Notes under the pieces: generated by a model
Databases searched by the model: none
Told to the model about the DNA's origin: nothing
The model's input: the letters and a program-made list of their open reading frames with translations, nothing else
Shown: positions 783 through 61,141 of the stretch, one piece after another
Layout of the letters: every line of letters begins with the position of its first letter
Numbering within the stretch: position 1 is the stretch's first letter
DNA from: a virus
Length of the DNA: 64,000 nucleotides
Strand: one strand, 5' to 3'
Virus record (IMG/VR): IMGVR_UViG_3300014152_000001
Coordinates: 41,749 to 105,748 of that record
Program-made: the position numbers and the translations under genes

Positions 783-1085
783 TCACTTCAACCCCAGATT
801 GCGTTTAATACCCGCGATATAGACATCCAACAGAGAAGAGAAGACATTAGTGAAGGCATAGACCTCATTAGTGAAGGCATAGACCTCATTCAACTCTTTA
901 TGTGACCAGAACTCGCACTCAGATTTATGGGCTATTGGAAAGAGATACCGCAAAAGAGTGGCGAGGGCTGGCCTTGGAATATACATTGTTTCCGTGTAAG
1001 TAGGGAGCATGATTTTGTCCTTCTCAAAGTCTCCTGTCTCAAGGTCTTTGACGATTGCATCAATACACTTTTGGCAGAGTTTCAT
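783..1085 (-). CDS. hypothetical protein (CxxC; 21-bp tandem duplication NEVYAFT x2)
   Basis: Start overlaps the uS2 stop (ATGA). Confidence 0.55.
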   Translation of the reverse strand: MKLCQKCIDAIVKDLETGDFEKDKIMLPTYTETMYIPRPALATLLRYLFPIAHKSECEFWSHKELNEVYAFTNEVYAFTNVFSSLLDVYIAGIKRNLGLK

Positions 1086-1771
1086 TTTTCCTCATCCTCT
1101 TCCTCCTTCTCCGGCATCTTAGTCTCAAAGTCCTCAATAGTGAGGGGTGTTTTAGTCATGGCATCAAATATCTCCTCATCTGCCTTTATCTTCTCAGAGT
1201 GAAGCAAGATAGACCTAGCCAAGAGATAGAAGACCGTGGCTATGGCCTTTGCGCCAGTGTTGTTGGCCGGAATGCAGAGGTCCAAATCCTCGAAAGTGGC
1301 GTTGGTGTTGCAGATGGCAATAACGGGGATACCAACGCTTCCGGCCTCTTGCATGGCCCTTCGGTCTCCTTTTATGGCTTCTCCTATCTTCTTCGGTATG
1401 CCATTGGTAGGGTCGGAGACAATCAACACATTTGCATCAATGTAGTATTTCGATTGAGAGTTTGTAAGACAACCCGGCATGAAGCGATGAAAGACGGTGG
1501 GTATGAGAGTGGCCTTCTCAAATGCCGTAAGAGCGTTCTCAAATCTCGCATCAGTGGCATAGAGCACAGCACCTTCGGTCTTGACTATGAACTTACCAGC
1601 CGTGTCAAGCCGAGTAAGGATGGCGTTCACATCCAAAATGGGATTGCCACTTGGAGCGATGCTAGAGACATACTGAGCCATGTCTTTAGTAACTGCTCCC
1701 TTAATGCCTAAGTGTATACCAGTGGCCTTTAGTGGCTCTTCTGTAAGGGTTTTAGGTAGGATATGACTCAT
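1082..1771 (-). CDS. rps2: archaeal-type ribosomal protein uS2, divergent, virus-encoded
   Basis: Motifs GIHLG, RFMPGCLTN, SDP..D..A..EA...GIPVIAICNT, DLCIPANNTG..AI...YLLAR follow the archaeal/eukaryotic uS2 pattern; ATG 1771 overlaps the upstream stop. Confidence 0.9.
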   Translation of the reverse strand: MSHILPKTLTEEPLKATGIHLGIKGAVTKDMAQYVSSIAPSGNPILDVNAILTRLDTAGKFIVKTEGAVLYATDARFENALTAFEKATLIPTVFHRFMPGCLTNSQSKYYIDANVLIVSDPTNGIPKKIGEAIKGDRRAMQEAGSVGIPVIAICNTNATFEDLDLCIPANNTGAKAIATVFYLLARSILLHSEKIKADEEIFDAMTKTPLTIEDFETKMPEKEEEDEEK

Positions 1772-2997
1772 TGTTTGCTTACCCCTACACATCTAACCAA
1801 CTCGTCCAGTATGGCCTCTACATCGTTGGTGTGAGTCTTAGCACTGCCAGCAGGTTTCAATCCACCCCCTTCCATGATGGCAGGATTGGCACTTCTGAAG
1901 GCCTTGCCAATGTGGATTGTGCTGTCCCTTCCGCCCCTACCAGAGACATGAACCCCATACTTAGGAATGGTGTTAATGACGAACCAAGTCTTATGGTTGG
2001 TGTTGGTAAACTTACTGCATAGTGCAGAACCCATGTTCCATTTGCTACTGATGATGGTCACACCGAAGTCTGGGTAGTCTAGTTGGGTGTAGTTGCCCCG
2101 CTTCTCTACATCTCCCTTGTCCTTTCTGTAGTTCACAGTGAGTTCCAGAAGCATCTTAGTGTTGGAGTTCTTTGGTGTTGGAGTGGTCGTTGGAAATACA
2201 GTCGGCTCCCAGAAGAGGTCGCCCTCAATCTTTTCCTTGTTGACCATCGCATAGAAGTCTAGCCAATTAGGAATCTTCTCCATCTCTTTCATGGCTTCAT
2301 AGCAGATGGGCGGGGCTTTGTTGAATATCATCCTTCGAGGATTGTGAAGCAATTGGGCGTAGAATGCAAGAATGCTCCAATCGTAACTACTGTTCAGACT
2401 CTTGGAAGCAAGCAATCCCCGCATAGAAGGATGCTTGTTGAGGAGTTCTTGGAAGAGAGGGCCACCTTCTTTGGTCCCAGTTGCTACATCTCCTTCTAAC
2501 CCTAGCAAGGCCCACTTCTCCATGTTGACTACCGACCATCCCATCCTCTTGGCAAATGCGTAAGAGATGCCAGTAGTGCAATTCTCGGTGGATGACTCAT
2601 AGTAGAAGAAGGGGAGATTGGGGAAAGGAAACTTCCCTTGGAGATTGGCTAAAGTCTTTGCATACTCTCCATAGGCTTCTGCGGTTTCAACCAAAAGGTC
2701 TGGCGGGTGGTTGTCCAAGATGATGACATTGATGCCACTGGCCAAAAATGCTACTGCATAGTTCAGCATCTCTTGACCGCTTCCAAGGTCTAGAATGAAG
2801 ACCGTTGCTGGCTTCAAGTCCATTATGTCTGAGACATTCTTATCCGTCATCCCGAAGACATCCCAATCTTGCCACATAATAGTGTGGGTAGCCTTGGGAG
2901 CATTCAGGGAGATGGCATTATGGATGATGCGACAGGCGCACATCCCATCGGTATCTTCATCGCTGAAGATTACGGTATCCTGATTTGCTTTACTCAT
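1768..2997 (-). CDS. DHH/DHHA1-family protein (RecJ/GAN/Cdc45-like) with degenerate motifs
   Basis: DEDTDG, LDLG, LDNH (for DHH), GD, SGR and GGG..PAG; promoter AGAATCTTTATATAGG at 3019-3034 supports start MSKANQ. Confidence 0.75.
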   Translation of the reverse strand: MSKANQDTVIFSDEDTDGMCACRIIHNAISLNAPKATHTIMWQDWDVFGMTDKNVSDIMDLKPATVFILDLGSGQEMLNYAVAFLASGINVIILDNHPPDLLVETAEAYGEYAKTLANLQGKFPFPNLPFFYYESSTENCTTGISYAFAKRMGWSVVNMEKWALLGLEGDVATGTKEGGPLFQELLNKHPSMRGLLASKSLNSSYDWSILAFYAQLLHNPRRMIFNKAPPICYEAMKEMEKIPNWLDFYAMVNKEKIEGDLFWEPTVFPTTTPTPKNSNTKMLLELTVNYRKDKGDVEKRGNYTQLDYPDFGVTIISSKWNMGSALCSKFTNTNHKTWFVINTIPKYGVHVSGRGGRDSTIHIGKAFRSANPAIMEGGGLKPAGSAKTHTNDVEAILDELVRCVGVSKQ

Positions 2998-4727: not shown

Positions 4728-4761
4728 ACCTACCCCTACTACCCTATCCTATTTAAAGATT

Positions 4762-6529: not shown

Positions 6530-7060
6530 ATGACAAAAGGACACGGATGGAAATCAAAATATGAAAGAAACTGGTATGCTGAACATAGAGACGAGCAACT
6601 TTTGAAAATGAAAGCATGGCGAGAAGAAAATCCAGAGAAGATGAAAGTGGCTCATCAACGATGGAATGCTACTCATAAAGAACAGAACAAACAAACTCAA
6701 AAAGAGTATCGTCAAAAGAACAGAAGTCGTGTTCGCAAGTGGAAAGACGAATGGTATCATAACAATCTAAATAAGGGAAGAGAGATGCACCGTAGATATT
6801 ATTACAAGCGAAAGTATGGTATAACTCCTAATGATTATGAAAGAATGATACAAGAACGGGAAGGCAAATGCGACCTTTGTGGAAAGCCCATTGAAAGAAC
6901 TAAATATCAGCCTTGTATAGACCATGACCACGAAACTGGAAAGATAAGGGGTCTTTTACATACTAATGAAAATAAGGCTCTTGGGTTGTTAGAAGACAAC
7001 CCAGAACTATTAACTAAAGCATTAGACTACCTAAAGAGGACACGAGGCTCTGGTAATTAG
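6530..7060 (+). CDS. endonuclease VII-family (HNH) homing endonuclease
   Basis: YGIT...CDLCG...CIDHDHETGKIRGLLH...NKALG. Confidence 0.88.
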   Translation: MTKGHGWKSKYERNWYAEHRDEQLLKMKAWREENPEKMKVAHQRWNATHKEQNKQTQKEYRQKNRSRVRKWKDEWYHNNLNKGREMHRRYYYKRKYGITPNDYERMIQEREGKCDLCGKPIERTKYQPCIDHDHETGKIRGLLHTNENKALGLLEDNPELLTKALDYLKRTRGSGN

Positions 7061-59293: not shown

Positions 59294-61141
59294 ATGGCTG
59301 AGAAAGAAGAGGACAAACCAAGAGACAATGTTATCACCGGAGCTCTGAAGCGTCTGGGATTCATCTCAGACCCGCCAAACAATCTGTTGACGGGAAAGGG
59401 ATTGAGCGACCCAACTGCTCAGGCTTCTTATAAGCCACCCTTAGAGTCCCAACTTGGGCAGATTGACAGAGGCGAGGCGTGGTGGAGAGACTTTGCTTGG
59501 GAAGAGTATGCGACCAAAGACTTGCCCGGTCTCGGTCTAGGCTTTACAGTCTATCCGTATGTTGCCGTTTGGGAGAAGATATGGGGAGCCGTCCCTACCG
59601 AAGACTATGAGAAGTATAAACAATACTACGTTCAGGAACCGTTCATTAGAGCCACGATAGACTTCCATACTCAGATGACCATTTCACAGGGTTATGAGTT
59701 GGACTATCCTCTGGATACTGTAGTGAAGGATGTCAAGGCTTTCCTCGACAGACACGACTTCATCAACCTGCTTAAGATAATGGTAAAGGATATGCTAGTC
59801 TTCGGCAACTCCTACACAGAAGTTGTGAGGACTTGGTTCTGTCATGAGACAGGTCACGACCTAACCGAACTGAGAATTTCTTACGAGACAGAAGGGAAGG
59901 ATGGTGGACCGGGATACTGGTGGACAGACAGAGTAGACATTGCTGATAAGCACAACAAACTCTATCCTACCCACAAGTTGGAGAACCCCTATGGTGAGAT
60001 TACCCGCTTCAAGCCACTAGACCCCATGTATATGAGAGTCAGAAGGGACGCTTACGGAACCATCCTTGGGTATGTCCAGTATTACGTCTTCCCGCTAGTC
60101 ACCTTCCTTGCAGACGAGATAGTTCATCTGAGATATATGCCTACCTCTTGGACTTATGAGTCGGTCTACGGTGTATCAATGCTACGCCCTATTCTCTTCC
60201 ATCAGGAGTTGATGAAGAACTATGAGCAGACGATGGGAGCCATCATGAATGTCTTCCTGAAGCCCATGTTCCTAGTCCACGTTGGCACATCAGATAACGG
60301 CCTACCAACGGCAGAAGTCACCAACCAACAGTATCAGTCAGTGAGGAGATACTTCCAGTCTAGCCAACCCGGACAGTCCATCGTAATCAGAGCCTCAAGC
60401 CCAGTAAAGGTAGAGCCAATCAACCCACCCATTGACAGGATGCAGACCACAGCGTTCTGGCTTCAGTGGCTCCACAACATGAGAACCTACGCCCTCTCCG
60501 TTCCAAAGTTCTTTACCGACCCTGCTGGATTGAACAGAGCCACAGCCCAGACTGTAGAGAGGGGATATTTCACGTTCATCAGTTCCAACCGCCAGTCCTT
60601 GAACAGCCAACTAGAGAGGAGCATCATGATAATGGTAATGCGGTCTATCTATGGTAAGATTGCAGACGAACTCATCCATGAGTATGATGTGCCCAAGTTC
60701 ATCTGGAAACCAGTGAAAGAGGACTCTCTAGAAGACAAGGCAAAGACTTATCTACCCCTCTATGCAAGCCGTATCCTGACCAGAGATGAAGTCAGAAAAG
60801 CACTCGGCTTCGAGCCATTGAATGAGGAAGAATTGGAGAAGGAGATAGGCGAGACAATGCCACCTATGGCCCAGACAGGAGCAGGAGCACCCGGTATGAC
60901 AAGAGAGGGAACACCCACCTTCGGTAGTCCAGATGAAAAGATGGCTACACGACCCCCTGACGAGAAGATGATACCAGACGAAGGGGCGGCACCAGAATGG
61001 GGAGCAGACATGGCAGAGAAGACCGAGCAAGGAGAAAGATTAGATGAGATGGAAGACGCGATTTCGGACCTCAGACAAGAGTTCCAAAAGAAACTACATG
61101 AAGCAGAGATGGAGATAGATAACAATGAAAAGAGAACATAA
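59294..61141 (+). CDS. portal protein
   Basis: DMLVFGNSY.E, LDP..MRV.RD..G....YVQ, EIVHLR...YGVS.L, ILTRDEVRKALGFEPL. Confidence 0.88.
   Translation: MAEKEEDKPRDNVITGALKRLGFISDPPNNLLTGKGLSDPTAQASYKPPLESQLGQIDRGEAWWRDFAWEEYATKDLPGLGLGFTVYPYVAVWEKIWGAVPTEDYEKYKQYYVQEPFIRATIDFHTQMTISQGYELDYPLDTVVKDVKAFLDRHDFINLLKIMVKDMLVFGNSYTEVVRTWFCHETGHDLTELRISYETEGKDGGPGYWWTDRVDIADKHNKLYPTHKLENPYGEITRFKPLDPMYMRVRRDAYGTILGYVQYYVFPLVTFLADEIVHLRYMPTSWTYESVYGVSMLRPILFHQELMKNYEQTMGAIMNVFLKPMFLVHVGTSDNGLPTAEVTNQQYQSVRRYFQSSQPGQSIVIRASSPVKVEPINPPIDRMQTTAFWLQWLHNMRTYALSVPKFFTDPAGLNRATAQTVERGYFTFISSNRQSLNSQLERSIMIMVMRSIYGKIADELIHEYDVPKFIWKPVKEDSLEDKAKTYLPLYASRILTRDEVRKALGFEPLNEEELEKEIGETMPPMAQTGAGAPGMTREGTPTFGSPDEKMATRPPDEKMIPDEGAAPEWGADMAEKTEQGERLDEMEDAISDLRQEFQKKLHEAEMEIDNNEKRT

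Follow-up and report, generated by a model that had tools for sequence, protein, structure and literature searches.

A divergent archaeal-type ribosomal protein uS2 encoded in the replication module of a complete tailed virus of wetland archaea

What lies among the replication genes of this wetland virus? Close to the start of the window, by which we mean the whole stretch of 64,000 nucleotides analysed here, a gene for ribosomal protein uS2 shares nucleotides with the genes on both of its sides (Table 1). The gene before it encodes an archaeal RecJ/GAN-like protein, itself preceded by a gene annotated as 'DNA polymerase exonuclease subunit', and the gene after it encodes a small protein of 100 residues. 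The initial annotation, made from the letters alone, had described uS2 as coupled to viral genes and as missing its usual cellular neighbours. Both statements are borne out, the first by the two ATGA overlaps and the second by comparison with a cellular control locus on an 828-kb wetland contig: there, uS2 belongs to the canonical RpoD-L18e-L13-S9-RpoN-S2-Memo-mevalonate kinase cluster, whereas none of these neighbours is found at the viral locus, where the gene sits in a predicted replication operon.

Table 1. Positions, in the window, of the uS2 gene, its signals and neighbours, and of other genes mentioned in the text
Feature	Position	Strand	Basis or remark
uS2 gene, archaeal/eukaryal type, 229 aa	1082..1771	-	ORF, profile matches, model
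ATGA overlap, RecJ/GAN-like stop codon and uS2 start codon	1768..1771	-	
ATGA overlap, uS2 stop codon and ATG of the 100-aa ORF	1082..1085	-	
SD-like AGGGGT at -15 to -10 of the uS2 start	1781..1786	-	
Codons of the 12-residue lineage-specific insertion T122-I133 (TNGIPKKIGEAI)	1373..1408	-	alignments
Codons of R137-R138, basic residues specific to the virus and closely following the insertion	1358..1363	-	
Upstream cistron, DHH/DHHA1 protein, archaeal RecJ/GAN-like, 409 aa	1768..2997	-	
Archaeal TATA box CTTTATATA, 23 nt upstream of the RecJ-like start codon	3021..3029	-	likely promoter
Downstream cistron, 100 aa, N-terminal CxxC	783..1085	-	ATG overlaps uS2 stop
Papain-family (C1) cysteine peptidase, 298 aa	4762..5658	-	
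Class-II glutamine-amidotransferase-like protein, 554 aa	39517..41181	+	
Protein of 343 aa, IS110/IS116/IS902 transposase family domain	54053..55084	+	PF02371, 31.8 bits
HerA/A32-type ATPase with terminal C2H2 zinc finger, 657 aa	57229..59202	-	
Portal gene	59294..61141		head to head with the ATPase gene

Judged from its sequence and position, the TATA box ahead of the RecJ-like gene is likely to be the promoter of a leaderless RecJ-uS2-ORF100 transcript. Given the distance of this box from the ATG of the RecJ-like gene, uS2 would thus be the second cistron of a replication-module transcript, in an operon predicted from sequence, and is not found among translation genes. Ahead of uS2 itself lies an SD-like word, and its relatives have GGTGA or GAGGAG at the equivalent position and no TATA box there. 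A longer reading frame starting from the ATG at 1792 was considered and discarded, because all homologues begin with MSHILP or MSLILP. The RecJ-like protein has the archaeal RecJ/GAN nucleases 5x4h, 5ghr and 6tvv as its nearest solved relatives and matches the PHROG 'RecJ-like ssDNA exonuclease'. Its homologues occur only on contigs of the same virus lineage, and a word-indexed protein search gave no cellular homologue at E<=1e-5. In this protein DNH replaces the DHH motif and GGGL replaces GGGH. The 100-aa ORF, which matches no Pfam or PHROG family, continues after its CxxC with an H..C..H stretch, and its relatives are only 31-35% identical. Archaeal ribosomes contain a small zinc protein, aS21, that adjoins uS2.

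The gene is encoded on a bona fide complete tailed virus of wetland archaea. The window corresponds to positions 41749-105748 of an IMG/VR record of 105,748 bp, which has direct terminal repeats, exact over 123 bp at both ends, and a CheckV completeness of 100%. The window contains genes for an HK97-type capsid protein, a portal protein and an A32/HerA-type ATPase. The sequence occurs in four wetland metagenome runs, with no RNA run among those listed. Three of the four are not its likely source, and in these each junction of the uS2 gene is spanned by short contigs of 100% identity. That the contig might be chimeric or a piece of host chromosome, the possibility on which the initial annotation had made its reading depend, is ruled out by the terminal repeats, the completeness estimate, the capsid and portal genes, the independent bridging contigs and conserved synteny. 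Elsewhere in the window, the C1 peptidase is the first gene of the leftward block that holds uS2; a separate TATA box lies 23 nt ahead of its ATG, and its relatives show 65-76% identity. A gene with a transposase family domain is also present (Table 1).

Is the viral protein a genuine uS2? It matches Pfam PF00318 (Ribosomal_S2) with 60.5 bits, where the cut-off is 26.1, and the archaeal/eukaryotic uS2 model TIGR01012 with 132.6 bits (E 1.2e-38) over model positions 9-185 of 196, that is, nearly end to end. These searches uphold the initial description of a full-length, divergent archaeal-type uS2, and this is what the protein is. The divergence is apparent from the equivalog cut-off of TIGR01012, 211.5 bits, which the viral protein does not reach; in NCBIfam, the same function is assumed for scores at or above such a cut-off. 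Its closest solved relatives are uS2 chains of archaeal 30S subunits (best 6tmf_B, 6e-28). An AlphaFold2 model computed from an alignment of 25 sequences (pLDDT 90.1, pTM 0.87) has the predicted alpha/beta fold of uS2, and its top Foldseek matches are the archaeal S2P structures 1vi5/1vi6, 9fhl_B and 9qf4, with target TM values of 0.82-0.91 and rmsd of 1.6-2.4 A. At 33 signature positions, defined by at least 80% conservation among 71 cellular uS2 sequences, the virus keeps 28 residues, including R96, G100, N104, D120-P121, E142, D164, P168 and N170-N171. A PROSITE-like pattern for S2 signature 2 fits 46 of the 72 non-viral rows and none of 16 viral rows, as an insertion breaks its spacing in the latter; P0165, one of these non-viral rows, falls in the insertion-bearing clade described below. 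The acidic C-terminal tail that had been pointed out initially is present, but it is not distinctive of the viral protein, because cellular relatives also have one.

The most conspicuous departure from cellular uS2 is the insertion itself, which had been noticed directly after the SDP motif and is confirmed there: twelve residues between P121 and K134, found in none of the cellular and solved uS2 proteins compared. Among viral homologues, G124 and P126 never vary, and 17 of 18 have K128. Pairwise identity among viral rows is 58% within the insertion and 59% over the rest of the protein, and AlphaFold2 models the segment as an ordered loop with a pLDDT of 91-92, which together argue that the insertion is constrained. 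It is followed by R137 and R138, the latter in 18/18 viral rows where Q stands in 7/7 aligned cellular rows and in 90% of the 71 cellular rows. The insertion with K128 and the region of R137 and R138 thus form a new conserved basic patch. Other basic residues have disappeared: 14 positions are basic in 60% or more of cellular uS2, and at seven of them (27, 37, 39, 74, 83, 172 and 174) the viral clade never has a basic residue. Among the seven are position 172, where 97% of cellular rows have K/R, and position 74, which is Asp in the virus. The pI of the core is 6.05, compared with 7.8-8.5 in cellular uS2. Given the seven lost basic positions and the lowered pI, rRNA binding by the viral protein could be weakened. 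The conserved surface appears to be remodelled, and a loss of the rRNA-binding surface is not established.

Where on the protein do these changes fall? In the predicted fold, the insertion follows strand 3, position 74 follows strand 2, and positions 172-174 follow strand 5, which would place all of them at the C-terminal edge of the sheet. Profile-position arithmetic, in which TIGR01011 positions 167-220 correspond to viral residues 136-189, suggests that N155, N170, N171 and T172 are equivalent to D188, N203, D204 and D205 of Escherichia coli uS2, the residues of the pocket that docks bS1 (PMC10123108). The insertion and the charge changes would then surround the loops equivalent to this pocket. 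From fold topology and profile arithmetic, as opposed to coordinates, we infer that the changed residues cluster on one face. Set against cellular archaeal uS2 as a whole (1vi5/1vi6, 9fhl_B, 6tmf_B, 6sw9_B), the viral protein is of the same length class, has the same flavodoxin-like fold (target TM 0.9) and shares the greater part of the signature positions; it differs in its low identity (at most 42%), the insertion, the gained arginines, the loss of half of the conserved basic positions, the more acidic core and the score below the TIGR01012 cut-off.

The origin of the gene was traced in a careful tree of 62 rows, 13 of them viral, computed with IQ-TREE under LG+C20, the phylogeny that had initially been suggested as an indicator of the host lineage. 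The 13 viral rows form one clade (support 100/98), nested in an 18-row clade (100/99) with five other divergent, insertion-bearing uS2 proteins. A split supported at 100/99 separates Bathyarchaeia and every remaining row from a Nitrososphaeria side, which comprises this larger clade, rows bearing the name Nitrososphaerales, AOA-type genomes and large contigs from wetland. A quick tree of 93 rows agrees with this placement. As a reconstruction from sequence, the careful tree demonstrates a single origin of the viral genes, from a uS2 of Nitrososphaeria type, the type nearest to the viral protein. The C-terminal motif IEDFETK is common to the viral protein and those of Nitrososphaerales, and this likeness and the grouping in the tree together make a member of Nitrososphaeria the probable host, on the basis of one gene and of names as given by the sources. 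An origin from Bathyarchaeia, suggested by the sole GTDB match and some of the top names, is ruled out by the careful tree. As a second host marker, the class-II glutamine-amidotransferase-like gene gave no named cellular homologue; its detectable homologues are all on contigs of the virus lineage.

Beyond the viral clade proper, the wider clade (P0126-P0130 and P0165) carries loop insertions after (S/T)DP or NP that differ in length and sequence, with five different insertions at this one loop. None of these proteins was found in IMG/VR. P0129 is encoded on a contig of 161,867 bp, and P0298, a homologue of the DHH protein, is likewise on a contig of 161,867 bp; because this RecJ-like homologue is specific to the virus lineage, P0129 is probably viral too.

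How widely is the gene spread, and how long has it been kept? A word-indexed search of 5.8 billion proteins returned about 20 homologues of 48-100% identity on contigs of up to 111 kb, those of 48-83% identity being located on contigs of 77-111 kb. Below these, identity falls sharply to at most 41%, to cellular uS2 proteins named Nitrososphaerales or Bathyarchaeia. Four other IMG/VR records, three of them with lengths of 91-107 kb, have the gene, at 83, 66, 63 and 52% identity. The block peptidase ... PolB-exo - RecJ-like - uS2 is kept in all IMG/VR records with uS2, and of the near-complete genomes among the IMG/VR relatives of the capsid protein, all four carry it. In the most distant pair, uS2 is 56% identical, compared with 44% for the RecJ-like protein, 33% for the exonuclease subunit, 38% for a 241-aa gene and 65% for the peptidase. 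The gene is under purifying selection in the viruses, with dN/dS of 0.135 (dS 0.78) and 0.142 (dS 0.91) in the two pairs that are unsaturated. Its GC content of 47.7% and GC3 of 53% lie within one standard deviation of the genes of the viral genome. Among 201 Thermoproteota genomes there was no copy closer than 42% identity; just one of them had two matches. A recent pick-up of a host gene is ruled out by the low identity of cellular copies, the virus-like composition and the presence of one clade across diverged viruses.

To our reading of the literature, a viral uS2 is apparently new. In their survey with 106 search profiles, PF00318 among them, Mizuno et al. (2019; PMC6375957) reported bS21, bL12, HPF, bL31, bL33, uS9, bS6, uL11, uS15, bL19, bS20, uL10 and uL2, with eS30 and bL9 in addition from isolates, and uS2 is absent from this list, in keeping with the initial statement that the viral ribosomal proteins commonly reported are bS21, bL12 and a few others. 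Among archaeal viruses, Hafunaviridae have been reported to encode eL21 (PMC8651126), and Kunpengvirus, a virus of Bathyarchaeia, to encode bL19 (PMC10541130). No viral ribosomal protein is mentioned in a preprint of 2025 on the viromes of Nitrososphaeria, no PHROG family matches the viral uS2, tblastn with it found no matching record in the INPHARED GenBank phage collection, and full-text searches turned up no published viral uS2.

Like the phage proteins (bS21, bL12, bL9, HPF, bL31, bL33; PMC6375957), the viral uS2 is a single host-derived gene of a tailed virus under purifying selection; unlike them, it belongs to a virus with an archaeal host and is large, universal and heavily remodelled. 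bS21 and bL12, the commonest of the phage proteins and shown to enter ribosomes, are described as loosely bound and exchangeable, and uS2 is not included among the 'dynamic, exchangeable' proteins listed by the same authors (PMC6375957). With the viruses encoding eL21 and bL19 it has in common that a tailed archaeal virus carries one ribosomal-protein homologue, but the site concerned, the mRNA exit of the small subunit, the virus lineage and the probable host are different (PMC8651126, PMC10541130).

What could the viral uS2 do? We see about an even chance that it replaces host uS2 in ribosomes, its incorporation into 30S subunits being surmised, and presents a new surface there. In such a scenario, uS2 would have been captured a single time, by an ancestor of the ~105-kb tailed-virus lineage and from an archaeon of Nitrososphaeria type, and retained in the lineage ever since. 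It would be transcribed from the TATA box as part of a leaderless RecJ/GAN-like - uS2 - 100-aa ORF operon of the replication module, and translated from the SD-like site as the second cistron. The loops at the C-terminal sheet edge would have been rebuilt by addition of the insertion with K128, R137 and R138 and by loss of K/R at positions 74, 172 and 174. As these loops, going by the sequence correspondence, may be those that form the bS1-docking pocket in bacteria, ribosomes of infected cells would offer an altered surface at the place where uS2 is met by the 5' regions of mRNAs and by ribosome-associated factors. In favour of this reading are the identity and fold of the protein, its retention and purifying selection across the lineage, the kept signature positions, the constrained insertion and the precedent of phage bS21 and bL12; against it stand the score under the equivalog cut-off, the lost basic positions with the lowered core pI, the setting of the gene in a replication operon and the absence of uS2 from the listed exchangeable proteins. 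In yeast, a uS2 cluster is needed in late, post-nucleolar maturation of the small subunit (PMC10062582).

Alternatively, the uS2 fold could have been recruited away from the ribosome as a partner or subunit of the replication or nucleic-acid-processing machinery that the virus encodes beside it, such as the RecJ/GAN-like nuclease and the PolB exonuclease subunit. The gene sits by the virus-specific RecJ/GAN-like gene throughout the lineage, within the replication module, a pairing apparently seen even for the distant insertion-bearing P0129 and the DHH homologue P0298. The protein lacks half of the conserved basic residues, its core is acidic and its score stays under the equivalog cut-off, and there are precedents for viruses borrowing ribosomal proteins, namely S1 in the Q-beta replicase and S10/NusE in lambda antitermination. 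Nevertheless, the 28 family-signature positions kept are hard to explain outside the ribosome. In the closest relative (L037, IMGVR_UViG_3300018005_000012), moreover, an HNH cassette and a small ORF part the RecJ-like gene from uS2 and break the ATGA coupling, so tight coupling is not required. A joint structure prediction of the two proteins, with a score of 0.00, is evidence for neither side. On balance, we regard a role outside the ribosome as unlikely. The gene inserted in L037 is of Endonuclease VII/HNH type, located at L003:7161-7625 and 37% identical to window positions 6530-7060; the homologue of the 100-aa ORF in that genome precedes uS2 instead of following it.

The rebuilt surface might also act as a shield, blocking a host factor that docks on uS2, or free viral uS2 might soak up such a factor as a decoy, with hibernation, collision-sensing, mRNA-decay or defence factors as candidates. 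uS2 is a known docking surface, for bS1 (PMC10123108) as well as for the SmrB hook, Xrn1 and Ski8, which all contact it (PMC11806357); the viral changes appear to cluster on one face; and five different insertions at one loop are a pattern expected of a contested surface. Yet the literature found names no archaeal factor that docks on uS2, and the assignment of the changes to one face derives from fold topology and profile arithmetic and not from coordinates, which leaves this reading distinctly improbable.

The initial annotation itself had proposed that the viral protein re-tunes host ribosomes towards leaderless viral transcripts, a claim that depends on how viral genes are started. Genome-wide, there are 66 TTTAAATA/TTTATATA boxes of archaeal promoter type, of the form (C)TTTAAATA or (C)TTTATATA; besides the one ahead of the RecJ-like gene, examples lie at window positions 4758(-), 5689(-), 7523(-) and 7738(+). 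For 48 of the 66, the ATG of an ORF follows after 17-30 nt, and for 41 of these after 22-26 nt, the geometry expected of leaderless archaeal transcripts, which implies leaderless first cistrons. Of the genes that begin at most 15 nt after the previous gene, on the other hand, 54% show an SD-like word between -16 and -4, compared with 9% of control windows, and the uS2 gene is SD-led here and in every relative examined. In tightly packed genes, a G-rich SD-like motif is seen at -13 to -8. Thus, the virus would use both leaderless first cistrons and SD-led internal ones, which is the usual pattern of TACK archaea, and the description of the viral transcripts as leaderless holds for first cistrons but not for internal genes, uS2 included.

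The mRNAs of S. solfataricus are described as mainly leaderless (PMC11698992). That uS2 lies near the mRNA exit, as had been stated, agrees with its location where, in archaea, the mRNA exit and SD-duplex chamber ends (PMC7005279, PMC7531240; for its place on the ribosome see also PMC7196836, PMC10062582). In E. coli, uS2-deficient ribosomes favour leaderless mRNA, and the absence of uS2 is accompanied by loss of bS1 and bS21, which are described as bacterial proteins (PMC7531240, PMC10491246); the phenotype of rpsB mutants stems from loss of uS2 and not from a uS2 variant (PMC10491246). The precedent that had been invoked therefore stands as a reported effect but falls short as a model for the virus, since it arises from a missing uS2 together with the loss of bS1 and bS21. 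Archaea are not known to have either of these two proteins.

A viral uS2 that joins the host 30S subunit and shifts initiation to leaderless viral mRNAs is accordingly plausible in place, given the 41 boxes at leaderless-type spacing, the position of uS2 at the end of the SD-duplex chamber and the E. coli effect, but weak in analogy. The ribosome of a TACK host, which normally uses both types of start, should already cope with leaderless messages, and as uS2 itself is SD-led in all relatives, the virus also needs SD-dependent initiation; we consider this version a poor prospect.

Returning to the preferred reading, in which viral uS2 takes the place of the host protein, a further step would be that the virus lineage builds 'viral' ribosomes with its own uS2, biasing translation to viral messages or blocking a host factor that targets ribosomes; this we hold to be doubtful. 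If true, the varied loop insertions in the wider clade would be marks of an arms race on the ribosome surface, and exchange of uS2 offers a concrete test for initiation and factor binding. The uS2 phylogeny further offers a probable assignment to Nitrososphaeria hosts for an uncultured ~105-kb virus lineage of wetland and peat. With only eL21 and bL19 reported so far as ribosomal proteins of archaeal viruses, such a function of uS2 would bring archaea, and a structurally defined site at the mRNA exit, within the scope of virus-specialised ribosomes.
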